Positions 38,087-64,000 of a stretch of DNA of 64,000 nucleotides are shown piece after piece. Location: positions 27,404,001 through 27,468,000 of the forward strand of contig CAIIXF020000001.1 in assembly GCA_903813345.2 (NCBI GenBank). The letters run 5' to 3'. Numbering within the stretch: position 1 is the first letter of the stretch; the number at the start of each line of letters is the position of its first letter. The notes below the pieces were generated by a model that saw only the letters and a list, made by a program, of their open reading frames with translations, did no database searches and was not told the DNA's origin. Source of the DNA: Owenia fusiformis (lineage: Eukaryota). The position numbers and the translations under genes are program-made.

Positions 38087-38450
38087 ACTGGATTTTTTCG
38101 CATCATATACGCCCCCCTAATGGCCCATGGGCCAAAAATCGAATGTTGTACGCTTATACACCCATGGGCCTATAAAAATTGACTATTTATTGATTTTTTC
38201 AATAAATTCAAGAGTATTTTGTCACTGGCAGATCGTTCTGTCGTTACTTTGTTTCATTGTATTAACATTCATTAACAACTTAACATTCCATTGTATTCAT
38301 CAGCTCTTCTCGCCTTTACGCCCACTTGGCCAAAAATCGAAAGTAGCACACTTATACGCCCATGGGCGAAAAATAAGAGGTAAAATAACAGACGAAATTA
38401 CCCCTTCTTTCAGTTATACACCCAGGGCTTATATGCGAGAAAATCCGGTA
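38087..38450. mobile_element. pogo/Tigger-like MITE (TA ends)
   Basis: tactggattttttcgcatcatatacgccc versus gggcttatatgcgagaaaatccggta (reverse complement). Confidence 0.55.
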
Positions 38451-38622
38451 TGCGAATTTAAATAATTTCAATATCAATTTTAAAATTGTACAGTTTTATT
38501 TCCAGAATTGCCACGAGCCTATCATATTTTGTCTAGCAGCGATTCAATACATTACAATACTGAAATAATACATCCATTGCTCCGTCTGATACGTTTTGTA
38601 GCTTTTTTTATAAAAGTTTCAG

Positions 38623-39031
38623 ATGTGCACATTACCTTTAACATTGATTCTGTGAGTGGGACAACAATCACCTCAACCGATGGCCTTCTCAGTGGAACAC
38701 TTTGGTCTTCTCCTTACTTCGTATCAGGTAAGGTAGGAAAGACCATATCATTTGACGGAACTGGACAGATGATAGATTTCGGAAATCAGCGCGCAACCTG
38801 CTTGGGAAATCTTGACAATTGTGTCAATGGACACAGCATGGTATTTTGGTTTTATCACAACACACCAACTATATCCACAACCTATTATTATTATATATCA
38901 TCAGGTGGCCAAAATAGCGGTCCAACTAGCCATGGAATAGCGGTCCGGATTAATGCGGATGACACTCTTGGTTTCTACCATGCAACAACAGCGAATAAAC
39001 AATGGGACACTACGGTGAACAATATTGCTAC
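38623..39031 (+). CDS. Laminin G / concanavalin A-like (LamG_3) terminal exon, 5' part, interrupted by Gypsy
   Basis: Acceptor tttcag| (in-frame alternatives at 38617 and 38506). Encodes GKVGKTISFDGTGQMIDFG..CLGNLDNCVNGHSMVFW..SSGGQ..HGIAV..NNIAT. Confidence 0.8.
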
Positions 39032-40901
39032 TATAGCGTTGCCGGAAGTGATGCATTGTGGGTGATGTGTTAAATAAATGATTACTGATATAAGTACCCT
39101 AAATGTGTCACAATTCTATGAATAAAAGTGCAAAATTTGCCTAAGTGTGTGTACTACTCATAACAATGTGAATATGAAATCACATATAGCAAGTAAAGCA
39201 GTTAATTGTAATAAAGGTAGCGTGTAGATTTGTTTGCATTGATATTTACATTTGTGATTATGTAAAATGTAATTAAGCCTCATAAAGAGGCATGAAGCTT
39301 TTATGTATTTTGTAACATTGTAATTGTAGTATGAAAAGAAAATATATCTTCATCTATTTATTGCGCTGTATGCCCATCGAAGGTGTCTCTTCTGTAGCAC
39401 TGAGGAATTATTGTAGCGGTAACGTGCGGTATAAACTTAAAGCTTATAGGTTCCAAGCATATGCAGGCGTCACATAGTGCATGACATCTATGGCTGGCGT
39501 CCCATCACAGACTGACATCAAAGTAACATCCTGGTTAGGCCAGTGCCCTCAGCTAGTCATCACCTCAGTTAACCTCATCATAGGGATCCCAGTGCATCAA
39601 GAATCAAAGAAAAATAGCACGTTTACGCGATACCACGATATTACACACTGAGGTTTAGCTTCTAGAGCATCACTACTGGGTGATGCTCTAATATGTTCAT
39701 TTATACATTATTATACTGTATTTGACATAAGACCTTTAATAAGTGAATTGTCAAATATCCTTGTACAGGATATAAATTAGTACAGGGCCTTTAAATATTG
39801 AATTGTCAAATATCCTTGTACAGGATATAAATTAATACAAGGCCTTTAATTGACAAATATCCTTGGACAGTATATGAATTTATACAGGGCCTTTAATTGA
39901 CAAATATCCTTGGACAGGATACGAATTTATACAGGGCCTTTAATTGACAAATATCCTTGGTCAGGATATGAATTTATACAGGGCCTTTAATTGACAAATA
40001 TCCTTGGACAGTATATGAATTTATACAGGGCCTTTAATTGACAAATATCCTTGGACAGGATATGAATTTATACAGGGCCTTTAATTGACAAATATCCTTG
40101 GACAGGATATGAATTTATACAGGGCCTTTAATATTGAATTGTCAAATATCCTTGTACAGGATATAAATTAATACAGTGCCTTTAATTGACAAATATCCTT
40201 GGACAGGATACAAATTTATACAGGGCCTTTAATTGACAAATATCCTTGGACAGGATATGAATTTATACAGGGCCTTTAATTATTCTTGTGCAGAATATAT
40301 TATGTGAAGACATCGGCATCTGGACGATTGGCTCAAGTATAAACCCCGGGTTTTGGTCTCATCGAAGATCCCCGGGTGATTTCGATCCCCGGGTGATTTC
40401 TATCTTTCCTTTTCAATCCTTATTTCTCATAGAAAACACCAAGAAAACTGAATTTAACTTTCTATATACATCTATTTACACTTTATATACGTTTTCCCAC
40501 CCCCCTAGTACATAATTTGTGTTATATTCTTACATTTTTACTAGATTTTGTTCAAGAGCTTCAAGATTTGATCTTCCCGCTTTCGAAAGCTACCTGTGCA
40601 CTGCGCATGTCCAAGACAGTCCAAGACGCCACAAATGGCAATTGACGCACCGCGCATGCGTCCCGGAAGTTAAGAAAGTCTAAACTTCCGGTAAAAACAA
40701 ACGTGAACATTTTATGTTTATACTTGAAAATGAGAAGATAGTAAGAGATTACATTAATATAAAATGATATAAGAATGCTGAAATATAATGCAAGTACAGG
40801 ATCGAACTAATGAATTGAACAGTTGAAGGTAAGAAAGTATGGCACGTAAAAGATCAGGTGAAATGAATTTGTAAATTTTCTGAGTTCCTAAAAATGCTAC
40901 A
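39032..40901 (-). repeat. 3' LTR (contains a 47-bp tandem array at ~39733-40280)
   Basis: Direct repeat of 48409-50278 at offset 9377; element-strand termini TGTAGC...GCTATA. Confidence 0.97.
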
Positions 40902-40914
40902 TTACTCCCCTCTT
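40902..40914 (-). promoter_or_regulatory. Polypurine tract
   Basis: Minus strand AAGAGGGGAGTAA directly before the 3' LTR start TGTAGC. Confidence 0.85.
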
Positions 40915-41026
40915 AGATTCTTCGTCCCGAAGAATCACTATAATTGTAAATCCGAACATTTACATTGAATTCATTTAAAATTGTTGTAGTTTTAATGTCT
41001 TGCATGCAATAACAATACCTGAACTA

Positions 41027-41530
41027 TGTTTATAATGGCATGCAATGTCGAGACTGGATACAATGTTCATAATGGCATGCGATGTTGAGACTGGATACAA
41101 TGTTCATAATGGCATGCGATGTCGAGACTGGATATAATGTTCATAATGGCATGCGATGTCGAGACTGGATACAATGTTCATAATGGCATGCGATGTCAAG
41201 ACTGGATACAATGTTCATAATGACATGTGATGTCGAGACTGGATATAATGTTCATAATGGCATGCGATGTTGAGACTGGATACAATGTTCATAATGGCAT
41301 GCGATGTCGAGACTGGATACAATGTTCATAATGGCATGCGATGTCGAGACTGGATATAATGTTCATAATGGCATGCGATGTCGAGACTGGATACAATGTT
41401 CATAATGGCATGCGATGTCAAGACTGGATACAATGTTCATAATGACATGTGATGTCGAGACTGGATATAATGTTCATAATGGCATGCGATGTTGAGACTG
41501 GATACAATGTTCATAATGGCATGCGATGTT
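41027..41530. repeat. 37-bp tandem array (~13.5 copies) between pol and the PPT
   Basis: ataatggcatgcgatgtcgagactggatacaatgttc repeated; the variant gatgtcaag recurs at 222 bp (6 units). Confidence 0.95.
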
Positions 41531-41544
41531 GGTAATTATAATTA

Positions 41545-44500
41545 TTAACTGTCCTCAGTCTGTGTTGCGATGGATACTTTTTCACCCTGGAATGAGATTT
41601 GATTCAACGGATTGAGTGTCAGGCTTGACATTTGCCAAGTGATTTGTCTTTCCCCTTCTTGAATGGTAAAGTACTCATCTCGTCGGACGCCTGGTAATAC
41701 ATTGACCTTTCTGTTGTTGGATTTCCTTCCCTTCTTTAAGCATTTCTGCATGTATAGGGCCCTCTTGTTGTCAGCCTCTGAAGAGGGTGCTCCAACCCCA
41801 AAAAGACGGGGGTCCAGCTTACTGGCGAGGATGCTATCATCATCTCCCTCCAAAGGCTCCAAAGGAATAAGCTTGGGAAAGTGGGGTGGGGGTATAGAGG
41901 GGGTGATTATTACTCTTCTCGGGGGTGATTTGGTGGGCACCTCATCTGTAGGAGCGGTAGGAGGGGTAGAGTTTTGAGCTGTGGGAGGCCTCAATGGCCC
42001 AAAAACTTGAGTGAGTCTATCTGACACATTAAGAGTAGAAGTATGTGTTGAGTCTGACACAGTAGGTGTTGAGTCTGACACAGTAGGGGTAGATGTGGAG
42101 TCTGACACAGTAGGGGTAGTTGTTGAGTGTTCATCTGAGGACGTTTCTGTTGGTTCATCCTGCAAGACATTCAGTGCATGTTCTATGGTTTTGGTCAGCA
42201 TATTTCCTAAGGTGGCTTTTAGGACTTTGTTGGGGTTGACGCACCCAAGGCCTAGGTCTTTTTCATCCGAGAATGAAAAAGGCAGGGCAACTGGTGCTTC
42301 CATATCTTCATAAGTCTCCTCCTCAGGCAGGGTTGATGGGATGGTGGCTACTGGTAGTTTTGGAAGGGTGATGGATGTGATGGGTATTGATGCCTCTTCT
42401 ATTTGTGGGACTAGTGTTGGCATAGTGATGGGTGTTGTAGTTAAGGGATCATAGATGGTCATTGGGTCTGCCCGACATCTGGTGAGGTGCCTCGCCAACC
42501 CACTTGGCCTTTCAAAAGGGATGTTGCAGTTAGGATTGGGACACCTATAATTGGTAGTACATCTGTGCATGGACATGTTGTGGGGAGAGTCAAATTTCCT
42601 CCTGCATACTGGGCATTTCAAGTGATTTCTTCTCTTCATTCCGTCCCCTCTGGTTGGCCCTCCTCGTCCACGACCACCTCTCTGGTTATAGGATCTGTTC
42701 GTCAAAAACTTTGGTGTTTTCACAACTCGACCACTGCGAGTAGTGGTTGTAGGGACTTCTTCAGAAGGCTCAGTCTCATCTTCTCCGTGATCATCTCTCG
42801 GTGGTGAGTCAACAACATCTAAATTTGGCCCCAAAAATGGCTTGAGACGGTTGTGGTGCACTGTTTTCAGTTTGCGACCAGTATCGATTTCATACACCAA
42901 ATCACTCAGATTCTGTTTGATGATATATGGGCCTTCCCATCGGTTTTGTAACTTGGGTGACAGTCCTACTTTACGTGCCGTTGCATGAAGCCAGACTGAG
43001 TCTCCAGGATGGTAACGCTGGGTGACCAGTTTATTGTCATAATGATGTTTCTGTCTCTCTGCAGTTTTCAGCAAAGTTTCTCGGGCATGTTCATGAATTT
43101 CCCAGAGTGCTTCCCTCGTCTCCACAACATATTGCTGGTAGATGATTGGATCATGTCCCTTAGGGGCAGGGCCTAACAAAAGGTCAATGGGTAGCTTCAA
43201 CTCTCTTCCAAACATCAATCTAGCAGGAGAATAACCGGTACTGGGATGAACAGAGGACCTATAAGCAAACAGTAACCACTGTAATTTTTCGTCCCAATCT
43301 CGCTGATTCTTTGAGATCACCTTTCGTAACATTAGTTCCAGTGTGCGATTGAATCGTTCCACCATACCGTTACCCTGAGGGTGATACGGGGTAGTTCTTG
43401 TCTTGTCAATGCCTAAAAGGTCACTAAGCTCTTTTAGTAGGTCACCATCAAATTGTCTTCCTTGGTCTGTGTGAAGTGACAGTGGAACTCCAAATCGAGA
43501 TATCAAAGTGTCACTGACAGCTTCCGCTACAACCTCTGCAGTTATACTGGCTAATGGGACAGCCTCTGGCCATTTAGTAAAGGAATCTTCCATCACTAAG
43601 ACATAGGAATTGTCTTTGTAAGTTGCAGTAAGAGGACCTAACAAATCAATGAAAACTCTTTCTAATGGTGCGCCTACAACATGAGACTTCAATTGAGCTT
43701 TCGGTCTCTTATTGGGCATACTGGCCGCTTGGCATGCTTCACATTGTCGACACCACTCTTCGATGTATTCTCTGTAATTAGGCCAGTAGTAACGAGACCT
43801 TATCCTGTCCACAGTGCGATTTATTCCCATATGTCCAAGTTGACTGTGTAGGCCGTCAAAGACATCACGATATAAAGCTTTCGGAATAACAGCTTGAACA
43901 ATCACATCTCCATGAATTCCAGGATTGATTGTCCTTGACAAAACATCATCTTCCAGACTAAGAGACGAATATTGGCCCCAGAACTGCTTGTGCACTGGAC
44001 TCAAACAAGCTATTTCTTGTCGGGTTGGTCGTTCACCATTTTTGACCCACACAATTACATCCTTCAATACATCATCGTCAGATTGTTTACTCCTCATATC
44101 GTGAGTTGGTATTAGCCAGTTTTCATCTTGTTCTGTAATTTGGCGGATATGTTCATCACAAGATTGTGAATCTCTAGTTTCATGGCGTTCACATTTTGAA
44201 CATGGACCACATGGAGGAATCCGTGACAAGCCATCTGCGTTGCCATGCTTCAGTCCAGCCCTATGTTCAATTGTGAAGTCATATGTTTCCAGGACCTCCA
44301 GCCATCGAGCCATCTGACCTTCCGGTCGTTTAAAATTGGCCAACCATCTGAGTGAACCATGGTCAGTTCTGACTTTGAAATGAGCACCATACAGATAGTG
44401 ATGGTAATTCTTCACCGACAGCACAATAGCCAGGAGCTCTCGTCTCGTAACACAGTAATTTCGCTCAGGTCGGCTTAAAGTTTTACTGAAATAAGCAACA

Positions 44501-46485
44501 GGCCTCTCCACTCCATCAATCTCCTGAGATAATACAGCTCCAACACCAAAAGCGCTCGCATCTGTGTCCAAGATAAATGGCACTCCAGCAACTGGATAAG
44601 CCAAAATAGGAGCAGTTATAAGAGCCTCTTTCAAGTCAGCAAAGGCGGCCTCACAATCAAGAGACCAGACAAACTTAATGTCTTTCTCTGTTAGTTTAAC
44701 AAGTGGCTTGGCACGATGGGAAAAATTCTTCACAAATCTGCGATAATAAGCACACGTGCCTAGGAAACTTCGGACTTCAGTGACAGATTTTGGGCATGGC
44801 CATTCTTTGACGGCTTTTATTTTGTCAGGATCTGGTTCAATTCCTCTTGAGGAAACTCTGTGTCCAAGAAAGGACACTTCTTCTTTAAAGAAATCACATT
44901 TCTTTGGGGACACTTTCATGCCAGCTTTGGAAATACGTTGCAGCACCTCCTCCAGGCGCTGTAAGTGTGTATCAAATGTATCAGCAAAACATATTATGTC
45001 GTCGATATACACTAAGCATGTCTCCCAGTGTAGGCCAACTAAAATCTTCTCCATCAACCTCTCAAAAGTGGCTGGGGCATTACACAGCCCGAATGGCATA
45101 ACAGTAAACTGATAGAGGCCATTCCCGGCAGAAAAGGCAGTTTTCTCTGCATCATCAGGACTCATACGGACTTGCCAGTATCCACTTGCCAAGTCAAGGC
45201 AACTGAACCATTTAGACCCAGAAAGAGCATCAAGGGAATCATCTATGCGTGGTAATGGATATGAATCTTTCTTTGTGAGTTCATTCAAGCTCCTGAAATC
45301 TATACAGAATCTAATCGAATCATCTTTCTTCCTAACCAACACAACCGGACTAGACCAAGGACTAGAAGATGGTTCTATGATTCCGTTTTCTAACATCTTA
45401 TGAATCTCAGTCATAGCGGCATCTCTCTTCGCTAAAGGTAAACGTCTTGGTGGAAGTTTCACAGGGCGATTATCTCCAGTATCGATGTTATGGGTCACTA
45501 GATTAGTTCGTCCCAGGTCTGATTTATCTCTGGCAAAGACATGGGTATATCTCATCAAAAGATCCTTCAGTTTTATCTTTTGGTCATCATCACAATGTAC
45601 ACTGCTACGATTGAATAAATCCTGTAAGTAATCAGGAAGTTGATCATCACTGTTCACAGACCGAATATGGACTCCCTGATCATCAGACGAATCTTCTGCA
45701 AGTGTACCAATTTCATCCACCTCTAATACTTCTTCACATGTGGCGACAATGGAATTAGCATGAATCGTGATTGGAGTATCACTAACATTGGCTATGCGAA
45801 TGGGTATCATCTTCGATTGTAGATTCACAACACCTCTCGCTACCATGTACTCTCTGTCAAAAGATGGATGATTTTCAACAACTCCAATACCATTCAGTCG
45901 TGACACATCATTACAAGAAAGCCTTCCCTGAAGAAACATTTCACTTGATGCCGGGACCTCAACCGTATCAATGGCAGAAACTTTAATCACCTTCGAGACA
46001 TCACTTTCCAGCTGACAGTCTAGACTAACTCCCTCTAGAAACAAGCGATTTGTAGCAAAATCTATCATACATGAATGTCTAGACAAGAAGTCAAAGCCCA
46101 AAATGACTGGGGATGCAATGTCTGCTATGATCATCTCACATTCTGGGAGTCTTCCATCTGAAAGTCTGAGTGCAAAGTCTGCACTACCTATGGTCCTGAT
46201 AACACCATTATTTGCCGTCTGGAGTCTTATTGGATTGATTTTTAAAATAGGCCTCACTGGGGATTTCAGCTGTTTATAGGTATCGTAACTCATAACACTG
46301 GTTTTTGCTCCAGAATCAATTAAACATGAAACATCTAAACCACAAATATTAACAATTAAACATAATCCATCATATTTAGTCATAGTGGATTGTCTAATGT
46401 TATGTACAGCTGGTCCTAGTCCATTCCCCATAGGATCCTTGAGGAGCATCTCATGGCCTACTGAGATCTCCCGTTTGAGTTTAAA
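41545..46485 (-). CDS. pol: Gypsy Pol (protease, RT, RNase H, integrase) with a ~385-aa C-terminal zinc-finger/Thr-Pro-rich extension
   Basis: LIDSGA (PR); CIDFR, LPRID, MPFGL, VYIDD (RT); TDAS, RELLA, TDH, NADGLS (RH); H..GH..C..C, FIDLLGP, TDQG, NGMVER (IN); GPY. Uninterrupted 1668-codon ORF (41545-46551), probably entered by a -1 frameshift. Confidence 0.97.
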   Translation of the reverse strand, partial: FKLKREISVGHEMLLKDPMGNGLGPAVHNIRQSTMTKYDGLCLIVNICGLDVSCLIDSGAKTSVMSYDTYKQLKSPVRPILKINPIRLQTANNGVIRTIGSADFALRLSDGRLPECEMIIADIASPVILGFDFLSRHSCMIDFATNRLFLEGVSLDCQLESDVSKVIKVSAIDTVEVPASSEMFLQGRLSCNDVSRLNGIGVVENHPSFDREYMVARGVVNLQSKMIPIRIANVSDTPITIHANSIVATCEEVLEVDEIGTLAEDSSDDQGVHIRSVNSDDQLPDYLQDLFNRSSVHCDDDQKIKLKDLLMRYTHVFARDKSDLGRTNLVTHNIDTGDNRPVKLPPRRLPLAKRDAAMTEIHKMLENGIIEPSSSPWSSPVVLVRKKDDSIRFCIDFRSLNELTKKDSYPLPRIDDSLDALSGSKWFSCLDLASGYWQVRMSPDDAEKTAFSAGNGLYQFTVMPFGLCNAPATFERLMEKILVGLHWETCLVYIDDIICFADTFDTHLQRLEEVLQRISKAGMKVSPKKCDFFKEEVSFLGHRVSSRGIEPDPDKIKAVKEWPCPKSVTEVRSFLGTCAYYRRFVKNFSHRAKPLVKLTEKDIKFVWSLDCEAAFADLKEALITAPILAYPVAGVPFILDTDASAFGVGAVLSQEIDGVERPVAYFSKTLSRPERNYCVTRRELLAIVLSVKNYHHYLYGAHFKVRTDHGSLRWLANFKRPEGQMARWLEVLETYDFTIEHRAGLKHGNADGLSRIPPCGPCSKCERHETRDSQSCDEHIRQITEQDENWLIPTHDMRSKQSDDDVLKDVIVWVKNGERPTRQEIACLSPVHKQFWGQYSSLSLEDDVLSRTINPGIHGDVIVQAVIPKALYRDVFDGLHSQLGHMGINRTVDRIRSRYYWPNYREYIEEWCRQCEACQAASMPNKRPKAQLKSHVVGAPLERVFIDLLGPLTATYKDNSYVLVMEDSFTKWPEAVPLASITAEVVAEAVSDTLISRFGVPLSLHTDQGRQFDGDLLKELSDLLGIDKTRTTPYHPQGNGMVERFNRTLELMLRKVISKNQRDWDEKLQWLLFAYRSSVHPSTGYSPARLMFGRELKLPIDLLLGPAPKGHDPIIYQQYVVETREALWEIHEHARETLLKTAERQKHHYDNKLVTQRYHPGDSVWLHATARKVGLSPKLQNRWEGPYIIKQNLSDLVYEIDTGRKLKTVHHNRLKPFLGPNLDVVDSPPRDDHGEDETEPSEEVPTTTTRSGRVVKTPKFLTNRSYNQRGGRGRGGPTRGDGMKRRNHLKCPVCRRKFDSPHNMSMHRCTTNYRCPNPNCNIPFERPSGLARHLTRCRADPMTIYDPLTTTPITMPTLVPQIEEASIPITSITLPKLPVATIPSTLPEEETYEDMEAPVALPFSFSDEKDLGLGCVNPNKVLKATLGNMLTKTIEHALNVLQDEPTETSSDEHSTTTPTVSDSTSTPTVSDSTPTVSDSTHTSTLNVSDRLTQVFGPLRPPTAQNSTPPTAPTDEVPTKSPPRRVIITPSIPPPHFPKLIPLEPLEGDDDSILASKLDPRLFGVGAPSSEADNKRALYMQKCLKKGRKSNNRKVNVLPGVRRDEYFTIQEGERQITWQMSSLTLNPLNQISFQGEKVSIATQTEDS

Positions 46486-48305
46486 GTGCTCTCTTTGTAT
46501 TTCACCCACAGTTCTTTGGGCCTCTCTCCACGGTGTGAAGATGGTAGCCATCCGGCTTTGACGTCATCTTGTCTAATGTGGCAGGAATATACAAAGTGGC
46601 CCTCCCGATTACAATAATGGCACTTCTTTCCATGTGTAGATCGGTTAGAATAAGTCGTAGTTGAAGCTGGTTCTCTGGCCTGACCTTCCACAGATGTTGC
46701 CCTTACTTGAATTGGAATATCCTCTGCATAGCCTTCGATAGCGAGAGCAGCTCTTAAGGCTTCTTTCATTGTCACTGGATTCTTTGAAAATACATGGTAG
46801 CTCATTTGAGTGTCACTCATCTTCAAGGCATGCTTAAATGCATCTAGTGCTATGGAGTCTTTAGCATGAGTTGCTAAATCTGGATATCCTAGGTTTGTTA
46901 GACGCACAATATCATGCCCTAGAACATTCACACCCTCGGACTTTCCTTTGAGACGTTTCCTCAGTTGATTTCTATACTTCTCTTCTTGGTTGTCAGGCTC
47001 AAATTGAGCAGCAATGGCTTCACATATGTAATTATAGTCATATCTCTTTGAGGTATCAATAGTGTCAAACACTTTTTGAGCATCACCGTCTAGGCAGATC
47101 ATCAGTTCTATAGCTTTTCGTTCATCGCTCCACTGATTGATTTCGGCAATCATCTCAAATGACATCTTGTAAACCCTCCAACTGGTACTGCCATTATAGG
47201 ATTTAGGTTTTCGTTCTTTGATATTGGACATATTTTGGATATTATTCGCCCTACTTGGAGGTGGCCTCATTGTGTTGTTAACCATGGCGGGTCTTTCAAA
47301 GTTCCTGATGGACTGGTAGGGAGCCACCTCAGTAGAATATGGGTCATTATTTCGGTATGGAGGTACATCAGTTTGATATCTCTCTTCATGTATTTTGGCT
47401 GGCACATGATTTGGATGCATACCAGCATTTTCGTCTATCAGGTATGGGTTACTTCTCGTAACTTTGGGCGGTTCATAGCTAATGGTTGGTAGGCCATGAG
47501 CTTTTGTGGTATATGGATTGTCGTTCAAAAACTTTGTGGTATGACTCCTCTCGTCAATAGGAGCTTCTGTACCAATAGGTGCTTGGACATGGCTAATGTC
47601 TGGTTGGCTCTGAGTATTTCTAACATATGGTACATTATTTACAAGTTGTGTTGGGTGACTTCTCTCGTCAATGGTAGCTCCTATACCAATAGGTGCTTGG
47701 ACATGCACACTATGCTGTTGTGGACGGACATCTTCCTGCTGTCGGCTGACAGAATTCGAAGTGGATGAAGATGTCCCAGCATCTGCCCTGGAACATGTAA
47801 TAAGTGCCTTCCCGGTTGTTCCAGAGTAATCTTCTGTCCGGGTACAGAAGCGGTGTGTGCATGGTACTGTATTTACAGAAGCCCCATTCCCACAAACACC
47901 TCTAGTTTGATCAGGACTTGGAGGTAGCGTGTGATTGGGACTTATAGCATTATTTACACTATGTACAGACATATTATCAGTTGATTCATTGGATTTATTT
48001 ACAATATTTTCAGTAGCATTAGCTTTTGGAACATCCCCCTGTCCAAAACTTCGAAGCTCATCATCTAAGGGATTAGAACAATATTTTCTCATAAGTGACT
48101 GTTCTTCTTCATCCAGGTCTTTACGCCATTTCCCTATGTCCGCAAGTCGCTGTTGAACTTCAGCATCGGACAGGTCATCACCCTCTGGATTCTTAGAGTT
48201 TTCTTCCTGCATCACTGGCTCAGTTCTCATAGCTTCAGCACCCTGTTGTGAGATCATCATGGTAACCTCATCATCAACCCGTAACTCTTGTCTCTCTTCT
48301 TCCAT
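46458..48305 (-). CDS. gag: Gypsy Gag, 615 aa, with CCHC zinc knuckle
   Basis: Capsid-like region (PKSYNGSTSW..FEMIAEINQW..LDGDA) and knuckle CHYCNREGHFVYSC; begins about 80 bp after the PBS. Confidence 0.93.
   Translation of the reverse strand: MEEERQELRVDDEVTMMISQQGAEAMRTEPVMQEENSKNPEGDDLSDAEVQQRLADIGKWRKDLDEEEQSLMRKYCSNPLDDELRSFGQGDVPKANATENIVNKSNESTDNMSVHSVNNAISPNHTLPPSPDQTRGVCGNGASVNTVPCTHRFCTRTEDYSGTTGKALITCSRADAGTSSSTSNSVSRQQEDVRPQQHSVHVQAPIGIGATIDERSHPTQLVNNVPYVRNTQSQPDISHVQAPIGTEAPIDERSHTTKFLNDNPYTTKAHGLPTISYEPPKVTRSNPYLIDENAGMHPNHVPAKIHEERYQTDVPPYRNNDPYSTEVAPYQSIRNFERPAMVNNTMRPPPSRANNIQNMSNIKERKPKSYNGSTSWRVYKMSFEMIAEINQWSDERKAIELMICLDGDAQKVFDTIDTSKRYDYNYICEAIAAQFEPDNQEEKYRNQLRKRLKGKSEGVNVLGHDIVRLTNLGYPDLATHAKDSIALDAFKHALKMSDTQMSYHVFSKNPVTMKEALRAALAIEGYAEDIPIQVRATSVEGQAREPASTTTYSNRSTHGKKCHYCNREGHFVYSCHIRQDDVKAGWLPSSHRGERPKELWVKYKESTLNSNGRSQ
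46479..46485 (-). promoter_or_regulatory. -1 ribosomal frameshift slippery site UUUAAAC with downstream stem-loop
   Basis: gag frame ACT TTA AAC, pol frame CAC TTT AAA; stem ggag-atctca/tgagat-g-ctcc starts about 7 nt downstream on the element strand. Confidence 0.8.
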
Positions 48306-48386
48306 CTGGAATGCAGGACAAGACTAGAGTTATACAGGTTATAAATACAAGGGTGTGCATGAACTCATCTGATCACTGGTTAAATG

Positions 48387-48406
48387 GAATCCCACCGCTG
48401 CCACCA
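48387..48406 (-). promoter_or_regulatory. Primer-binding site complementary to the tRNA-Leu 3' end
   Basis: Plus strand GAATCCCACCGCTGCCACCA matches the 3' end (plus CCA) of metazoan tRNA-Leu(AAG-type); located 2 nt from the 5' LTR. Confidence 0.85.
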
Positions 48407-48408
48407 AT

Positions 48409-50278
48409 TATAGCGTTGCCGGAAGTGATGCATTGTGGGTGATGTGTTAAATAAATGATTACTGATATAAGTACCCTAAATGTGTCACAATTCTATGAAT
48501 GAAAGTGCAAAATTTGCCTAAGTGTGTGTACTACTCATAACAATGTGAATATGAAATCACATATAGCAAGTAAAGCAGTTAATTGTAATAAAGGTAGCGT
48601 GTAGATTTGTTTGCATTGATATTTACATTTGTGATTATGTAAAATGTAATTAAGCCTCATAAAGAGGCATGAAGCTTTTATGTATTTTGTAACATTGTAA
48701 TTGTAGTATGAAAAGAAAATATATCTTCATCTATTTATTGCGCTGTATGCCCATCGAAGGTGTCTCTTCTGTAGCACTGAGGAATTATTGTAGCGGTAAC
48801 GTGCGGTATAAACTTAAAGCTTATAGGTTCCAAGCATATGCAGGCGTCACATAGTGCATGACATCTATGGCTGGCGTCCCATCACAGACTGACATCAAAG
48901 TAACATCCTGGTTAGGCCAGTGCCCTCAGCTAGTCATCACCTCAGTTAACCTCATCATAGGGATCCCAGTGCATCAAGAATCAAAGAAAAATAGCACGTT
49001 TACGCGATACCACGATATTACACACTGAGGTTTAGCTTCTAGAGCATCACTACTGGGTGATGCTCTAATATGTTCATTTATACATTATTATACTGTATTT
49101 GACATAAGACCTTTAATAAGTGAATTGTCAAATATCCTTGTACAGGATATAAATTAGTACAGGGCCTTTAAATATTGAATTGTCAAATATCCTTGTACAG
49201 GATATAAATTAATACAAGGCCTTTAATTGACAAATATCCTTGGACAGTATATGAATTTATACAGGGCCTTTAATTGACAAATATCCTTGGACAGGATACG
49301 AATTTATACAGGGCCTTTAATTGACAAATATCCTTGGTCAGGATATGAATTTATACAGGGCCTTTAATTGACAAATATCCTTGGACAGTATATGAATTTA
49401 TACAGGGCCTTTAATTGACAAATATCCTTGGACAGGATATGAATTTATACAGGGCCTTTAATTGACAAATATCCTTGGACAGGATATGAATTTATACAGG
49501 GCCTTTAATATTGAATTGTCAAATATCCTTGTACAGGATATAAATTAATACAGTGCCTTTAATTGACAAATATCCTTGGACAGGATACAAATTTATACAG
49601 GGCCTTTAATTGACAAATATCCTTGGACAGGATATGAATTTATACAGGGCCTTTAATTATTCTTGTGCAGAATATATTATGTGAAGACATCGGCATCTGG
49701 ACGATTGGCTCAAGTATAAACCCCGGGTTTTGGTCTCATCGAAGATCCCCGGGTGATTTCGATCCCCGGGTGATTTCTATCTTTCCTTTTCAATCCTTAT
49801 TTCTCATAGAAAACACCAAGAAAACTGAATTTAACTTTCTATATACATCTATTTACACTTTATATACGTTTTCCCACCCCCCTAGTACATAATTTGTGTT
49901 ATATTCTTACATTTTTACTAGATTTTGTTCAAGAGCTTCAAGATTTGATCTTCCCGCTTTCGAAAGCTACCTGTGCACTGCGCATGTCCAAGACAGTCCA
50001 AGACGCCACAAATGGCAATTGACGCACCGCGCATGCGTCCCGGAAGTTAAGAAAGTCTAAACTTCCGGTAAAAACAAACGTGAACATTTTATGTTTATAC
50101 TTGAAAATGAGAAGATAGTAAGAGATTACATTAATATAAAATGATATAAGAATGCTGAAATATAATGCAAGTACAGGATCGAACTAATGAATTGAACAGT
50201 TGAAGGTAAGAAAGTATGGCACGTAAAAGATCAGGTGAAATGAATTTGTAAATTTTCTGAGTTCCTAAAAATGCTACA
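48409..50278 (-). repeat. 5' LTR
   Basis: 1870 bp; the only mismatch I spotted against the 3' LTR is A39124 versus G48501. Confidence 0.97.
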
Positions 50279-50282
50279 CTAC

Positions 50283-50541
50283 TAACACATGGTATCACAT
50301 AAGCGTAACGTGGAGCGCAACTGGCGGACAGAATGTGTACATCAATGGCATACTCAAAGCGTCAAACTCCAACCCATATACCAGAACTAATTCACCAACA
50401 TCATACAACAACTTCAAACTCGGAGTCACAAACAGCTACAATGGGTATTATGGAAACGGAATGCTGGATGAATTCCGTTTCTACGAGGTAGAACTAAGTT
50501 CTTCTGATATAGCCGCGATATATTCAGTCGATAACATTTGA
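50283..50541 (+). CDS. LamG terminal exon, 3' part (resumes after the Gypsy element)
   Basis: Removing the element and one CTAC restores aat att gct act aac aca tgg (NIATNTW), followed by YHISVTW..VYINGIL..FKLG..GNGMLDEFRFYEVELSSSDIAAIY..stop. Confidence 0.88.
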
Positions 50542-52062: not shown

Positions 52063-55000
52063 CAGGGTGTCCCGAAAGTATGGGGCCCCCTAGGCAGACA
52101 TATACCAGTGTTGTCATAGTATGTGTCATATATCATTTTAAAGCTTATCCAAAGTTACATTGATTCACCAAGTATCATGGTTCAACTCTCAAATGTGAGA
52201 AAATTCCAGGCATTTCAAAATTGAGTGTTTGGTCAAAATTAAGTTAAATTTTACACCAATTAAATCACGAGTCAATGTGTCCTCCCGGGCCAACTTAACA
52301 GCAGCAATTCTTTTCAGGTCGGAGGGTCAGATTGCTTCATTTCCATGAGACACTTTATCCTTACTGGGGTTGTGGCAGGCAGGTTTTGGGTTGGGACTGG
52401 GGCATGGGTGACTAGACAAGGGGTCGGATAGACCTAATACAACAATGGAGGGTGACTATTGGCCTATTCAACCATCTACATATACTTAAACAACCTAAAT
52501 GCCGACAAAATAGAATTCCAATAACTAGAGACTTGCTCTTTTTTGAATTGATCAAACCCCCCCTCGTGATGTATATGCTCTTATATGCATACCTGAGATT
52601 CTTCGACATATCATATGTGATCTATGGGATTTTACTATTGTTGTATCTGGTCAGTTGCATAACAACTTGTCTTTTCCTTCCACTGTTGATAATATACCAT
52701 ATAAATCAGCATCTCAAATACATTGTGAGTCCTTACTCCCTATGTTTGACCTTAAAAGTTCTAGCAACCAGTTGTGTTGTACCTGGAATTTGCATATTAA
52801 CATTTGCTCCAAACTTGAAAATGTTATTACTTCTTATAGCAGGAGATGTCCATCCTAATCCAGGTCCGAACAATCTTTCATTTTTGTTTTCCAATATAAA
52901 TAGCCTCTCAGCAAATGGGGGTACACGATTTGACTCTTTGAAACTAAGAATAAATGAACTTAATCCAAGCATTATTGGCCTTTGTGAGGCTGGAATTTCC
53001 AAATCCAAAATGGATTCGGGTGATTTTGACATTAATAATTATAATGTTTTTTACAGTGAAAGAGGTAGAGGTCTGGTAATTTATACTCATAAAACCCTAG
53101 TGACAAAAATCTCTAATGACTTTATCATAGATGGGCTTGACATCCTGTTAGTAACTGTTATTGTGAACCATAAACGAATTTTATTTGGCTCTTGCTACAG
53201 GTCACCCAGTCAGAATGCAACAGAAACAAGAAATTATTTTTCATTATTGGAAACTCAACTTGATCAAATAGTAACATCTCAGCCGGCCTTTGACCATGTC
53301 ATACTGATGGGTGACCTGAATGCAAAACATTCAATCTGGTATGATAATGATGACATAAACTTAGCAGGAACTAAACTCTTAGAAACCATAGATAACCAAG
53401 ACTTTGTACAACTTGTTAGTGAACCAACTAGAATAACTGATCACTCCAAATCCTGCATTGATCATATTTTGACCGATTCTCCAGATATTTTTGACAACTG
53501 GGATGTCACTGATCCCATTGAAAAAACCGACCACAGCACAATTGTAGCTCAAATTAAAGTTGGTGTGACTAAGTCCAAGCCTATTAAAAAAACCATTTGG
53601 AAATACCATGAAGCTAATCTTGAAACTTTGAATGATGCTATTAGAAATACCGAATGGACAGATATTATCGATAGAAACATAGACTTGGACTTAGCTACCT
53701 CTAACTTTATTGAAAAACTCTCGGACATATACAAATCCAAAATTCCAAATAAAATCATCACTGTAAGGTCAAATGACCAGCCATGGTTCAATGATAATCT
53801 TAAACGTGAAATATCAAAAAAGAAAGTTTTATATAAGAAATTTTCAAAAGCTCCTAATCAAGTTAACAAATTCAATTATAATCAACAAGCTTCTAAAGTT
53901 TCCCAACTAATTGAACAAGCCAAAGAGGCACATGAACTCAAAACTATCTCATCAATTGACCAACTCAATAAATCTGATAAAAACTATTGGAGGTTAATTA
54001 AATCATTCCTTGGTAACAATTTACATAAAAATGATATTTCTAGTATCTATGATGATGTCTCTGGACACGACTTATCTAACAACCTTGATATAGCTAACCG
54101 ATTTATGAGTTTCTTTGCCTCAAAAAATCATACTGATGCAACTTTTGATCAATTGCCCCATTTCCCAATTAGGACTAATTCTCTACTCATTTCCGCCCAG
54201 ACCGATCAATTTGAGGTAATGAAAATAATTTTGTCCTTAGACACCTCAAAGGCATGTGGCCCAGATAACATCACAAACAAAATGTTGAATTTGACAGCCC
54301 ATACCATTTCAAAACCTTTAGCCAACTTATTCAACAAACTTTTATCAAAGTGTACCTACCCGGATATCTGGAAAATTGGAAATGTTTGCCCAATTTTTAA
54401 GAAGAATGACAAATCAAACATCAACAATTATAGACCTATCACTCTTTTAAGCTGTATCTCTAAAGTATTTGAAAAAGTAATAGCTGATCGAATCAGGAAG
54501 CATTTAATTGACAATAATCTTCTTTTCAAACATCAGTCCGGATTCTTACCAGGTCATAGTACTATTCATCAACTTTTATCTATTGAACATTTTCTTCAGA
54601 GCACATTTGAACAAGGAAAAGCTTCCAAAACAATTTTTCTAGATATAGCGGCTGCATTTGACAGAGTACCACATAAGCTACTACTTCATAAACTTTCAGC
54701 ATATGGCTTCCAAGGGCAAATTCAAAAAATTATCAAATCTTACCTTACTAACAGAAAAATTGCTGTGCAGATATCTGGGGAACTTTCAAATTATTCTGAA
54801 AATGACTTTATCAATTGTGGTGTCCCCCAGGGCTCAATACTTGGGCCAATATTATTTCTCCTATACATTAATGACCTTCCAGACAATCTGGAGGGGCATT
54901 GCTATATTTATGCGGATGACACTTCTCTACATCATCCTTTTGACCCTAAGCATCCACAAGAAGTAGATGCAATAGCCAGATCTAACCTAATTAAAATTGA

Positions 55001-56691
55001 AAAATGGTCTGACACCTGGAAATTGGAGTTTAAACCTGAAAAGAGTTCTGAAATGATATTCCACTCATCCAGATCTAAAGTCGATAATGTTTCTGTTTCA
55101 AAGTTAAACAATGTTGAAATTACCAGAGATCACGAGCACAAACATCTGGGATTTACTTTTGACCCAAGCTTATCATATGACAAGCATATTGGAGAAATCA
55201 TATCAAAAATACGAAAAATGTTGAACCCTTTAAAGAAACTTAAATATAAGTTAGGTAGTAAGCATCTAGAAACCATATTTAAGTCCTTTATTTTACCCCA
55301 TTTTGACTATGGTGCTATCATGTACAGCACAGCCTCAAAGTTCCTATTACAACGACTCGACAGTCTTTATTATAAAGCTGCACTTTATTGTTCTGGGTGT
55401 ATCCAAGGGAGCAGTTCAAAAAAGGTTTTAAACCTACTCAATTGGCCAACTCTTGAATCAAGACGCAGTATCCAGATTAACAACTTTATGTTCAAAATTG
55501 TAAATGGTACAAGTCCTCCCTATGTAACTGATATTTTTGACAAATTTAGAAACCAAGCAAACAGAGTATTGAGATATAATGAAGCATTTAAAATGCCCAT
55601 TAGATGCTCAAATAGGTTCTCCACCTCAGCAATACCAGCTGCAATTTCAAATTGGATCAATCTTCCACCTGCTATTAAATCTAAGAATACTCTTTCGAAT
55701 TTTAAAAAACACCAAAGAGTACATTTCCAAAAAACGCCCTCGATTTTGTCAACAAGCCAGCTTAATCTAACAAGGGTTCAAGAAATAGTTCTCAATAAAG
55801 TGAGAGCTGACCTATACTTCAAAGCCCAGTTCTACGCTCACAACTTTCAGTCTATTGACAGCCCTAATTGCACTTGTGGAAAACCACAAACTCTGAAACA
55901 TTTTCTCTTTCAATGTGACTTACTTACTATACAAAGACAGCAATTCATGGACAAACTCACTGATCTCGAACCAAACATCTTCAGTCATAATCTCTCTCAA
56001 ACTGATTTCATAGCTATCTTGAAAACAGGAATTCCCAAATTAAACATAGATGCAAATTCCCAAATACTACTTCTCATTGTTAATTTTATCAAAGACAATA
56101 GCTAATTCCCTCCTTCTTATCCATCTCTAGTATCCTCAAGTCCCGTCACACCTGCCCTAGTCCAAGACCCTGCCTGCTCTGCCACTTCTACTTCCACCTG
56201 CCCCCTATTCTTATATAATGCCATTGTGGCGATTTAAGAATTTACATGTCTGTATTTACATTTTTTGTATTCTATTGAAATAAATTTAATAATAAAAAAA
56301 ATAAAAGGGATATTCAGTTGGAAAAAGAGAACGGTGAGGGTAGAAACTCTAAGGAAACTCTTCTAAAGTCCCTTAACAGGTTTTAAGAGGGTTATAAAAT
56401 TCCACACCCCTATTTGAAGGGCTTTTAAGGTCATATCTGAAAATAATTGCTGCTGTTAACATGGCCAAGGGGGAGACATTGACTAGTAATGTGGTGTAAA
56501 ATTGAACTTTATTTTGACAAAACACTAACTTTTAAAATGACTGTAACTTTTTCCCGTTTGGGAATTAAACCATGATACTTGGCAAATCAATGTAACTTTG
56601 GATAAGCTTTAAAATGATATATGACACATACTATGAGGACACTGGAATATGTTTGCCTAGGGGGGGGGGGGCATACTTTCGGGGCACCCTG
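52063..56691. mobile_element. Tc1/mariner-type foldback MITE with ~255-bp TIRs, hosting the LINE
   Basis: ta|cagggtgtcccgaaagtatg...catagtatgtgtcatatatcattttaaagcttatccaaagttacattgatt is the reverse complement of 56437-56691|ta. Confidence 0.85.
52452..56105 (+). CDS. Intact CR1-group LINE ORF: hydrophobic leader, 2A-like motif, AP endonuclease, RT, CCHC finger (element ~52365-56306)
   Basis: APE motifs SNINSL, LCE, CYRSP, GDLN, IDHI, TDH; RT motifs GPDNI, YRPITL, QSGF, AFDRV, GVPQGSILGP, YADD; CTCG..HFLFQC; AATAAA and A-rich tail at 56278-56306. First ATG is at 52569. Confidence 0.95.
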   Translation: MTIGLFNHLHILKQPKCRQNRIPITRDLLFFELIKPPLVMYMLLYAYLRFFDISYVIYGILLLLYLVSCITTCLFLPLLIIYHINQHLKYIVSPYSLCLTLKVLATSCVVPGICILTFAPNLKMLLLLIAGDVHPNPGPNNLSFLFSNINSLSANGGTRFDSLKLRINELNPSIIGLCEAGISKSKMDSGDFDINNYNVFYSERGRGLVIYTHKTLVTKISNDFIIDGLDILLVTVIVNHKRILFGSCYRSPSQNATETRNYFSLLETQLDQIVTSQPAFDHVILMGDLNAKHSIWYDNDDINLAGTKLLETIDNQDFVQLVSEPTRITDHSKSCIDHILTDSPDIFDNWDVTDPIEKTDHSTIVAQIKVGVTKSKPIKKTIWKYHEANLETLNDAIRNTEWTDIIDRNIDLDLATSNFIEKLSDIYKSKIPNKIITVRSNDQPWFNDNLKREISKKKVLYKKFSKAPNQVNKFNYNQQASKVSQLIEQAKEAHELKTISSIDQLNKSDKNYWRLIKSFLGNNLHKNDISSIYDDVSGHDLSNNLDIANRFMSFFASKNHTDATFDQLPHFPIRTNSLLISAQTDQFEVMKIILSLDTSKACGPDNITNKMLNLTAHTISKPLANLFNKLLSKCTYPDIWKIGNVCPIFKKNDKSNINNYRPITLLSCISKVFEKVIADRIRKHLIDNNLLFKHQSGFLPGHSTIHQLLSIEHFLQSTFEQGKASKTIFLDIAAAFDRVPHKLLLHKLSAYGFQGQIQKIIKSYLTNRKIAVQISGELSNYSENDFINCGVPQGSILGPILFLLYINDLPDNLEGHCYIYADDTSLHHPFDPKHPQEVDAIARSNLIKIEKWSDTWKLEFKPEKSSEMIFHSSRSKVDNVSVSKLNNVEITRDHEHKHLGFTFDPSLSYDKHIGEIISKIRKMLNPLKKLKYKLGSKHLETIFKSFILPHFDYGAIMYSTASKFLLQRLDSLYYKAALYCSGCIQGSSSKKVLNLLNWPTLESRRSIQINNFMFKIVNGTSPPYVTDIFDKFRNQANRVLRYNEAFKMPIRCSNRFSTSAIPAAISNWINLPPAIKSKNTLSNFKKHQRVHFQKTPSILSTSQLNLTRVQEIVLNKVRADLYFKAQFYAHNFQSIDSPNCTCGKPQTLKHFLFQCDLLTIQRQQFMDKLTDLEPNIFSHNLSQTDFIAILKTGIPKLNIDANSQILLLIVNFIKDNS

Positions 56692-61990: not shown

Positions 61991-62914
61991 AACCAGAGGT
62001 TTAAGATTGCAAGCAATCTTACGGAGGCCCCGTAGGCTTTTTTGAACATTTAAAGGTCAGCCAAAGGTCAAATCTTAAATACAATGTCATATATGAACTC
62101 CAGGCATCTTGTAGATGATTTAAAAAAAAAAGTTTGGTCAATTTGAAGCAATGTGAAATTTGACCTTGAAAAATTTCAACATTAGACCTTTTTCAGTTTT
62201 TGAGGTCCAATATCTCAAAACTGGTGCAGAATTTTAATAGATAATCAATTGTTAATATGTGTAACCTTTAGAGAAATATATATCTTGACTTTAATTCAAA
62301 AATATTGATTTGTAGTCACAAACTTTGAGAAACTTAGAAAACACAGTTTGTGATCTTGTTTGATGACCTTGACATTTGACCTTAAAAATTTTACTTTTTT
62401 AGACCTCAGTGGGTCCTTTGTGATCAAATATACCTAAATTTGAATCCGGAAAATCAATTTGAAAAATCAACTTTTTTTACCTTCCGAAGGTCACCGAAGG
62501 TCAACCAAAGGTCAAAAGTCAAAAGTAAGGACATATTTGAGTTCCTGAGATCTTGTAGATGATTTTTAAAAAAGATTCTGGTTCATTTGAAGCAAGTTGA
62601 AAAATGACTGATTTTTGCTGATTTTTGCCGATTTTTGACGTCAAATATCTCAAAAACGGTAAAAAATTAACGCGTACATATAGTGAGTGTAAATTTGAAG
62701 CAAGTTGAAATTTGACCTTAAAAAATTCCGAAATTTCACCGTTTTCAGTTTTTGAGCTCTAATATCTCAAAGCTGGTGCAAAATTTTAATAGATAGTCAA
62801 TTGCTAATATGTGTAGAACCTTTAGAGGAATATATATCCAGACTTCCATTCAAAACTATTGATTTGTAGTTACAAACTTTGAGAAACTTAGATAGAACAG
62901 TTTGTGACCTCATT
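61991..62914 (+). mobile_element. Helentron/HINE-like repeat, truncated by the assembly gap
   Basis: Starts aaccagagg with hairpin taagattgc-aa-gcaatctta; internal duplication (~62140-62360 versus ~62690-62914) with tgacctt motifs. Confidence 0.5.
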
Positions 62915-63414
62915 NNNNNNNNNNNNNNNNNNNNNNNNNNNNNNNNNNNNNNNNNNNNNNNNNNNNNNNNNNNNNNNNNNNNNNNNNNNNNNNNNNNNNN
63001 NNNNNNNNNNNNNNNNNNNNNNNNNNNNNNNNNNNNNNNNNNNNNNNNNNNNNNNNNNNNNNNNNNNNNNNNNNNNNNNNNNNNNNNNNNNNNNNNNNNN
63101 NNNNNNNNNNNNNNNNNNNNNNNNNNNNNNNNNNNNNNNNNNNNNNNNNNNNNNNNNNNNNNNNNNNNNNNNNNNNNNNNNNNNNNNNNNNNNNNNNNNN
63201 NNNNNNNNNNNNNNNNNNNNNNNNNNNNNNNNNNNNNNNNNNNNNNNNNNNNNNNNNNNNNNNNNNNNNNNNNNNNNNNNNNNNNNNNNNNNNNNNNNNN
63301 NNNNNNNNNNNNNNNNNNNNNNNNNNNNNNNNNNNNNNNNNNNNNNNNNNNNNNNNNNNNNNNNNNNNNNNNNNNNNNNNNNNNNNNNNNNNNNNNNNNN
63401 NNNNNNNNNNNNNN
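62915..63414. other. Assembly gap (500 N)
   Basis: Run of N. Confidence 1.
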
Positions 63415-64000
63415 GTTTCAATGTGAAAACGTCAACTCTTACATATGTGAAATATATAATTATAAATAACACAAATGTATTATCTTAAAAGCAAGGAAAT
63501 TGTATCCCAGGCTTCCATCTCGTTATTCTGCCATATATGGAAAAATCGAATGTAACGGCCACACAAAGGTGTATGTGTATGTATCTTTTATTTCCCAATT
63601 TGGAATTGGAGTTTTTAAACATAAGCACATTTATATGTATACACGTATACAAGTTGACATGAACATTATTTACATTTTATATAAAATAAATTAAAACGTT
63701 ACGTAGGATATGGTGGAGTTAAATCGATGTCCCCAGCCTTACAATTGTATTGATGTATTTGAAGAACACTTCTACATAGATTGCAGAGGTCGGCTTGTAC
63801 CATAGCGCTAAAGTTGTCGAGGTGTAAGGACGCATTGCCAAAGATTGCTCTAATATCATTGATGAATGTTTGTCTGTGTTCCGTGTAGGCTTGACACTTC
63901 AGCAAAGCTTGATTTAATTGTTAACTGCGAGGAGATCTTGGTTTTTAACAAATTTCAAGTCAAGAACTATGGATAAATTTTTGGTTACACTCACCATGTT
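63415..64000 (+). repeat. Third copy of the PAN-EGF 5' cassette region; CDS starts at 63969 (MDKFLVTLTM) and runs off the window
   Basis: Matches 27512-27630, 24764-24790, 26097-26400 and 24826-24895. Confidence 0.85.

Follow-up and report, generated by a model that had tools for sequence, protein, structure and literature searches.

A coding extension with two C2H2-type zinc fingers behind the integrase of a young Ty3/Gypsy element in Owenia fusiformis

A Ty3/Gypsy element of the annelid Owenia fusiformis was found to carry, directly behind its integrase and in the same reading frame, 385 further codons which encode two zinc fingers and a conserved C-terminal block. The element lies on the minus strand of a stretch of 64,000 nucleotides (positions 27,404,001 to 27,468,000 of contig CAIIXF020000001.1, GenBank assembly GCA_903813345.2), which is called the window here and to whose numbering all positions refer. 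Homology indicates that the integrase-fused extension is a real coding sequence, as it has a full-length homologue in the form of a stand-alone annelid protein. The interpretation preferred here, to which about even chances are given, is that these codons are a separate coding cassette, which was joined in frame to the pol gene of a young element and adds a nucleic-acid-binding accessory module to it.

The pol gene was identified as one stop-free frame of 1672 codons on the minus strand (41545-46563). Using Pfam, a protease (PR, amino acids (aa) 71-162), a reverse transcriptase (RT, 410-570), an RNase H (633-761) and an integrase (IN) with its H2C2 finger (893-947), its rve core (966-1062) and its C-terminal SH3/GPY domain (1187-1242) were found in this frame, and the order PR-RT-RNase H-IN is that of Ty3/Gypsy elements. 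The integrase shows the landmarks GPY at aa 1211 and HHNRLKP at aa 1236 as well as the tail TRSGRVVKTPKFL, which starts at aa 1275 (42741). Delimited by Pfam and by translation, the pol core from PR up to this tail covers the positions 42703-46563. It is followed in frame by the 385 additional open codons (aa 1288-1672, 42702-41548), which run into two consecutive TAA stop codons at 41542-41547, so that the continuation of the Pol frame by about this length, noticed in a first-pass annotation of the window, is borne out. Since none of 2000 shuffled versions of the 1155-nt extension remained open and the remaining five frames over the same region contain 9 to 27 stops, the openness of the extension is not due to chance.

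Five parts, all encoded on the minus strand, make up the cassette: a linker rich in basic residues, a tandem pair of fingers, a long Thr/Pro-rich spacer with predicted disorder, the short acidic motif LPFSFSDE and, at the C-terminus, a conserved stretch of about 85 residues. The RGG/KRR linker (42622-42684) contains RGGRGRGG from 42681 and the first methionine of the cassette, M1309, at 42639. Finger 1 (42559-42615) has the pattern C-x2-C-x12-H-x-C (CPVC...HRC) with a non-canonical last ligand. Finger 2 (42475-42543) has the pattern C-x4-C-x12-H-x3-C (CPNPNC...H..RC) and was recognized in the translation, by Pfam, by a profile search of the PDB and in a structure model. With the classical C2H2 spacing C-x2-4-C-x12-H-x3-5-H and a beta-beta-alpha fold taken as the criterion, both fingers end in a Cys as last ligand. 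Repeats of 21/27 nt encoding TPTVSDS, which were detected as Tandem Repeats Finder (TRF) arrays at 42040-42128, are located within the Thr/Pro-rich spacer that is predicted to be disordered. The C-terminal block at 41623-41874 (KLIPLE...LDPRLFGVGAPS...NRKVNVLPGVRRDE...GERQITWQMSS) is common to Owenia proteins. The RGG patch, the two fingers and the TPTVSDS repeats had already been named in the first-pass annotation, and all of them were located again.

The tandem fingers are of the predicted DNA-binding C2H2 type. On the extension alone, zf-C2H2 (PF00096) matched two stretches and, with 27.4 bits, exceeded its gathering cut-off of 25.2, and the profile search of the PDB related the finger pair to tandem DNA-binding fingers (6j0d, 5e-5; Aart, 6.3e-5; INSM1, 1.2e-4; TFIIIA, 1e-3), which at the level of sequence agrees with the earlier proposal of an accessory module of the nucleic-acid-binding type. 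In an AlphaFold2 model of the whole extension (mean predicted local distance difference test (pLDDT) 39.9), the fingers form the beta-beta-alpha fold twice at pLDDT 61-76 and are the sole part modelled above 60, the remainder being below 50. The C-terminal 134 aa modelled alone gave a low-confidence helix and a three-stranded sheet (mean pLDDT 50.9). The C-terminal block, which is conserved but seemingly without a fixed structure, resembles a motif for protein contacts. A search of the ESM Atlas with the extension returned only generic C2H2 clusters (0.88-0.90), which were below the bar for recognition.

Besides zf-C2H2 no Pfam family was found in the extension, neither an env or fusion family nor, at E up to 10, a chromodomain. 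Furthermore, no segment resembling a transmembrane helix is present in it, the highest Kyte-Doolittle mean over 19 residues being 1.02. The region is not an open reading frame (ORF) of its own and has neither the membrane anchor nor the fusion family of an env-carrying, errantivirus-like element, which confirms the earlier statement that it is not an env gene; the parallel statement that it is not a chromodomain likewise holds. In chromoviruses, which are Ty3/Gypsy elements, a chromodomain is appended in frame to the C-terminus of the integrase. No chromo family was found in the whole pol frame at E up to 1, and the element is therefore not assigned to this group.

An exhaustive HMMER search over 1.84 billion representatives yielded three proteins at E<=0.001, one of which is a true relative of the cassette. 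This best match is CAH1800315.1 from O. fusiformis itself (300 aa, E 1.7e-7). Of the two others, a 102-aa fragment from Culex named ZXDC matches in the fingers only, and a 4249-aa repetitive protein with 40 matched residues was taken as a chance match. The cluster mate of the true relative, CAH1785232.1 (449 aa), bears the source name 'C2H2-type domain-containing protein'. Its alignment with the extension runs through the full length, residues being identical in 95 of the 397 columns (E 9e-19). The C-terminal block alone is identical to that of the Owenia relative in 35 of 89 positions (E 3e-15). The alignment to CAH1785232.1 begins at pol aa 1285 and thus at the junction between integrase and cassette. 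The two Owenia proteins match the cassette over its full length, with fingers, acidic motif and C-terminal block in colinear order, and the common parts are the basic stretch, the two fingers, the acidic motif L[DP]F[GS]F, LDPRLFG.GAPS and the C-terminal pattern NR.V..PGV.R.E..T...GE..ITW..SS. They differ from the cassette in that they are annotated as stand-alone proteins, have canonical C2H2 ligands and share 24% identity with it. Judged by these alignments, the module represents an old and conserved protein.

The two Owenia proteins are near-identical to each other, with about 5 differences per 300 residues (counted by eye), are encoded on different chromosome-size contigs, and one of them is truncated. 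This resembles mobile DNA more than a single host gene. When CAH1785232.1 was used in the ESM Atlas, there was no usable feature match, and the structure rows showed a TM value of at most 0.31. Scans with the alignment matched the pattern 323 times in metagenome contigs and 194 times in viral contigs, but tblastn confirmed none of these matches. The degenerate DNA pattern for DPRLFG.GAP hit two loci in metagenome contigs, both with 67% GC and reading FDPRFFGI...DPQ, presumably a ketosynthase motif, and these were discarded as chance matches.

The element carrying the cassette is bounded by two long terminal repeats (LTRs) of 1869 bp. The 5′ LTR (48410-50278) starts with TGTAGC on the minus strand, and the 3′ LTR (39033-40901, minus strand) differs from it by a single mismatch at 39124, so that the pair is identical in 1868 of 1869 positions. 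The direct repeats lie 9377 bp apart; the BLAST match between them is 1875 nt long, and its second mismatch falls outside the LTR. A target-site duplication (TSD) of CTACT flanks the element at 39028-39032 and 50279-50283; alternatively, it comprises the four bases CTAC and the LTR is one base longer. The primer binding site (PBS, 48387-48406, minus strand), as read from the sequence, starts with TGG 2-3 nt past the 5′ LTR and presumably matches the 3′ end of tRNA-Leu; tRNA genes were not found in the window. The polypurine tract (PPT) AAGAGGGGAG is located at 40905-40914 (minus strand), just upstream of the 3′ LTR. The gag gene (46458-48305, minus strand, first ATG to TAG) has an N-terminal region with a 114-nt duplication and, near its end, a CX2CX4HX4C knuckle, CHYCNREGHFVYSC, which was seen in the translation, the Pfam matches being weak. 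With its LTR pair and TSD, its CCHC knuckle and a PBS and a PPT adjoining the LTRs, the element has the features of a Ty3/Gypsy retroelement. The pol gene overlaps gag in the -1 frame, and 19 nt ahead of its stop the gag frame contains the slippery heptamer T TTA AAC (46479-46485, minus strand).

Directly 3′ of the pol stop a tandem array of 37 bp with 13.6 copies is located (41026-41529, minus strand). Each LTR additionally contains about 10 copies of a 47-bp unit (49123-49658 in the 5′ LTR and 39746-40281 in the 3′ LTR). The two kinds of array are unrelated, and no 7- to 9-mers shared between the 47-bp and the 37-bp units were found.

The element is inserted into a host coding exon with a Laminin_G_3 (concanavalin-like) domain, the two pieces of which lie at 38484-39031 and 50284-50541 on the plus strand. 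Excising the element together with one copy of the TSD restores a continuous host frame (...TTVNNIATNTWYHISVTWS...), the right half of which matches positions 79-151 of the 151 positions of PF13385 (E 9.8e-15). LTR identity, TSD and restored host frame mark the insertion as very recent and gene-disrupting, and they place the cassette aboard when the element moved, which it has done at least once in this form. The insertion is probably polymorphic. The earlier claim of a young and intact element therefore stands, and with it the argument that the open frame is not a product of decay. Just upstream of the host exon, two direct repeats of 64 nt (38115-38376), which are 198 nt apart and 75% alike, were also observed.

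The boundary between integrase tail and cassette was examined in sequence runs mapped to 41530-48900 at a likeness of at least 90%, i.e., raw RNA (X17, X18), raw DNA (X20) and contigs (X2). The junction lies at 42700/42701 on the minus strand, and exactly there breakpoints appear in other individuals, at 42701 in nine reads of X20 and at 42700 in two contigs of X2. The two X2 contigs match the cassette exactly to 42700 and then continue with 16 other upstream letters, which on the minus strand contain 11 pyrimidines among the first 12 and end in CAG. Zero depth of X2 was recorded over 42760-43251, and contigs break near 43336-43368, which indicates that the C-terminal part of the integrase differs in that individual. 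The GC content at third codon positions (GC3) rises from 0.349 in gag and 0.363 in the pol core to 0.46 in the cassette, with a step at about aa 1300; in windows of 100 codons it amounts to 0.29-0.42 in pol vs. 0.42-0.51 in the cassette. Based on the breakpoint and the GC3 step, the cassette is separable, with a history of its own and a sharp 5′ edge. The fusion looks like a recent recombination by which the cassette, probably together with the 37-bp array that follows it, came to lie behind the integrase tail.

The 16 letters in front of the X2 cassette, which on the minus strand read like the end of an intron, also suit a different origin, in which a host gene for a zinc-finger protein would have supplied its large 3′ exon as the cassette, captured recently by template switching or recombination, in frame by accident and without function for the element. 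The stand-alone annotation of the Owenia relatives, which have about 50 extra N-terminal residues, fits such an origin, as do a 4-nt deletion in one other copy and the GC3, in which the cassette is closer to the two pieces of the host exon (0.38 and 0.47) than to pol. Capture from a spliced mRNA should however have carried the upstream exon too, and chance would have to account for a capture that is in frame and falls exactly on the exon edge. Moreover, the near-identical Owenia copies on two contigs, one of them truncated, show a pattern typical of mobile DNA, and the element moved with the cassette aboard. A functionless passenger is thus considered unlikely.

Several observations weigh against the preferred interpretation of a cassette serving the element as part of pol. 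The nine X20 reads match the integrase side from 42701 upward and continue with unlike letters, in which an in-frame stop was seen by eye at the fifth codon, assuming that the 30 printed letters adjoin the break (consensus agreement 0.69). The possibility raised at the outset that other copies stop after the integrase has therefore come true in part, namely for reads which leave the reference at 42701, the stop itself being read by eye. Four X20 reads from the finger region match up to 42631 and diverge upstream. An X2 contig of 601 nt over 42089-42685 shows 8 differences, and of the 6 listed, 4 change a residue and 2 are silent. Another X2 contig lacks 4 nt at 41844, which would put the conserved block out of frame. 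A search of the window for a second copy with the 42700/42701 junction gave none, this copy being alone there. To these points are added the irregular last ligand (H-x-C) of finger 1, the poor model confidence outside the fingers (mean pLDDT 39.9 and 50.9), the distance of the sole homologous family known (24% identity) and the circumstance that packaging, tethering and the binding of DNA are predictions.

In the four mapped runs X17, X18, X20 and X2 the in-frame junction was not confirmed, which would fit an assembly mis-join at 42700; a single stop codon lost in this copy alone would be a related explanation. Both are regarded as very improbable, as the cassette lies within an element having matching LTRs and a TSD and comprises 1155 nt of homologous coding sequence, which is not what a read-through into a 3′-UTR would provide. 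In addition, of the words sampled from 41400-46600 a fraction of 0.88 is present in run X1, which may however be the source sample.

In the X2 contigs, two further deviations from the element were observed. Over the N-terminal region of gag (47434-48171) the summed depth amounts to 62-89 vs. 4-15 over the remaining element, and copies of this region, or of a similar sequence, may far outnumber the element. The tandem duplication of 114 nt in this part of gag is located at 47474-47701, its units being 73% alike. In one contig, 214 nt of the leader between PBS and gag (48160-48375) are replaced by 67 other letters. The ends of the replaced piece read CA..TC, which is not a splice pattern, and the leader accordingly varies between copies.

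Nearest to it among the known arrangements is that of the Ty3/Gypsy element Cer1 of Caenorhabditis elegans. The Cer1 polyprotein has 2272 aa, the integrase ends at about aa 1873 and the same frame continues into exon 5 of the spliced cerv mRNA; the CERV protein is nuclear, contains a Cys-rich loop and is required for the export of the genomic RNA (PMC10309623). Cer1 and the Owenia element are alike in a pol frame that runs past the integrase into a non-env region of about 400 aa with no relatives outside the host group; in Cer1 this region encodes a nuclear accessory protein with a Cys-rich, putatively zinc-binding loop (PMC10309623). By the criterion of a pol frame continuing past the integrase into a non-env accessory region, the Owenia element is thus of the Cer1/CERV kind. 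The two differ in that CERV is made from a spliced mRNA of five exons and has its N-terminal part in common with GAG, whereas for the Owenia element no splice joint appeared among the 27 RNA reads mapped. By description, CERV combines a C4-type loop with the globular domains M and G, whereas two classical fingers in a mostly disordered chain are found here.

This precedent gives room to the view that the cassette is an old trait of a lophotrochozoan Gypsy lineage, which would long have had it behind the integrase and would make a Pol fusion as well as, via a spliced subgenomic RNA, a free nuclear protein starting at M1309 (MKRRNHLKCPVC); on this view, the 3′ ends of such elements would have been mis-annotated as the Owenia 'genes'. 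In Cer1, the polyprotein likewise runs in frame past the integrase into cerv exon 5 (PMC10309623). Also in line with it, AG sites preceded by a pyrimidine-rich run are present at 42734 and 42695, the latter at the end of tttttgacgaacag (42708-42695, minus strand), and M1309 (42639) is the first ATG after both, so that a free form of the cassette could start there. The Owenia copies are multi-copy, and MAFFT sets SREGNVLKS of CAH1785232.1 under TRSGRVVKT of the integrase tail.

Against such an old trait, the mapped RNA showed no splice joint, nor in particular one onto about 42695 as envisaged in the first-pass annotation, though just 17 reads of X17 and 10 of X18 were mapped, which were mostly 90-95% alike and came from about 6 in 100 of the reads of each run. 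The N-terminus of CAH1785232.1 is not significantly similar to the integrase tail, its score being reached by 27 of 500 shuffles, and no integrase domain of Pfam was found in this protein at E up to 10. Relatives of the integrase tail without the cassette exist in X20. Finally, a word-index search for fused forms of 919-2926 aa gave none among 7803 candidates, and further searches of this kind gave none among 7998 and 7999 scored candidates, the latter number referring to 'longer' forms; these blanks are weak, because the search with 7998 candidates also missed CAH1785232.1, which is present in the collection. The long-standing fusion is hence held to be about as improbable as the passenger origin.

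If the cassette is an accessory module as preferred here, its course through the life cycle can be outlined. Since no stop lies between integrase and cassette, a ribosome that has made the -1 shift in Gag-Pol must continue through the cassette, which forms the C-terminus of the product. As such it would be packaged together with the integrase and could enter the nucleus with the pre-integration complex, where the finger pair would most likely bind DNA, or the nucleic acid of the element itself. One option is that the cassette tethers the integrase to DNA, in analogy to the chromodomains of chromoviruses, and another that it acts as a nuclear accessory factor like CERV of Cer1. A third option would be chaperone-like binding, by analogy with the two basic-flanked C2H2 motifs of the C2 protein of L1Tc (PMC2805920).

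A wider version of the model appears still less likely than either the passenger or the old trait. It assumes a lophotrochozoan Ty3/Gypsy lineage in which sequence-reading integrase fingers choose the insertion sites or bind the 47-bp and 37-bp arrays of the element itself, with effects on expression or insulation, and which additionally makes a free, spliced nuclear protein. In Drosophila, gypsy is bound by Su(Hw), a finger protein of the host, which would be the counterpart of the element-encoded fingers assumed here.

Modules behind the integrase or at the 3′ end of retroelements are found in several other systems. Chromoviruses resemble the Owenia element in an extra module for the recognition of chromatin or DNA, which follows in frame after GPY/F and has a presumed targeting role; here, in contrast, there is no chromodomain, the module comprises about 385 aa with C2H2-type fingers, and targeting is putative. 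LTR elements of bdelloid rotifers have captured non-env ORF3s coding for a GDSL lipase, a DEDDy exonuclease and transmembrane proteins (PMC5408684). The likeness lies in diverse non-env ORFs behind pol, common to unrelated contexts, whereas these ORF3s are separate and their description mentions neither zinc nor C2H2 (PMC5408684), the Owenia module being fused in frame. The C2 protein of L1Tc, a long interspersed nuclear element (LINE) of Trypanosoma cruzi, has two TFIIIA-like C2H2 motifs, binds RNA and DNA and acts as a nucleic acid chaperone (PMC2805920). Its C2H2 pair, too, has basic flanks and is encoded in the 3′-terminal part of a polyprotein frame (PMC2805920), but it belongs to a non-LTR element and to another position in the life cycle, and in the Owenia cassette a long disordered tail and a conserved block follow the fingers.

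A C2H2 module behind a Gypsy integrase was not found described in a full-text word search, which covered part of the literature without supplements. As to whether the extension corresponds to an accessory ORF already described for Gypsy elements, the answer is accordingly divided: the arrangement has its precedent in Cer1/CERV (PMC10309623), and for the C2H2 cassette itself no description was found. The integrase-fused zinc-finger add-on is unusual, although not without precedent. Taken together, the interpretation given in the first-pass annotation is borne out in part.

Further retroelement sequences are present in the window. An intact-looking LINE ORF of 1229 codons with endonuclease (Exo_endo_phos) and RT is located at 52416-56105 on the plus strand, about 2 kb from the Gypsy element. 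An open frame of 517 codons on the minus strand (13010-14563) contains a partial RT (RVT_1 positions 82-194) and is probably a truncated retroelement. An assembly gap of 500 N at 62915-63414 lies in AT-rich surroundings (GC 0.24 over 62001-64000).

To our knowledge, site choice and the gain of accessory genes in LTR retroelements are known from few cases, i.e., chromodomains, the tethers of Ty1, Ty3 and Ty5, env capture and CERV of Cer1. If the cassette were a mere passenger, the case would be one of ordinary gene capture. If an integrase with a C2H2 pair is indeed made, natural DNA-reading fingers would be coupled to a retroviral-type integrase, which would provide a testable model of targeting. 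The sharp edge of the cassette in other individuals would moreover offer a chance to follow the gain and swapping of modules in an element that is still moving.

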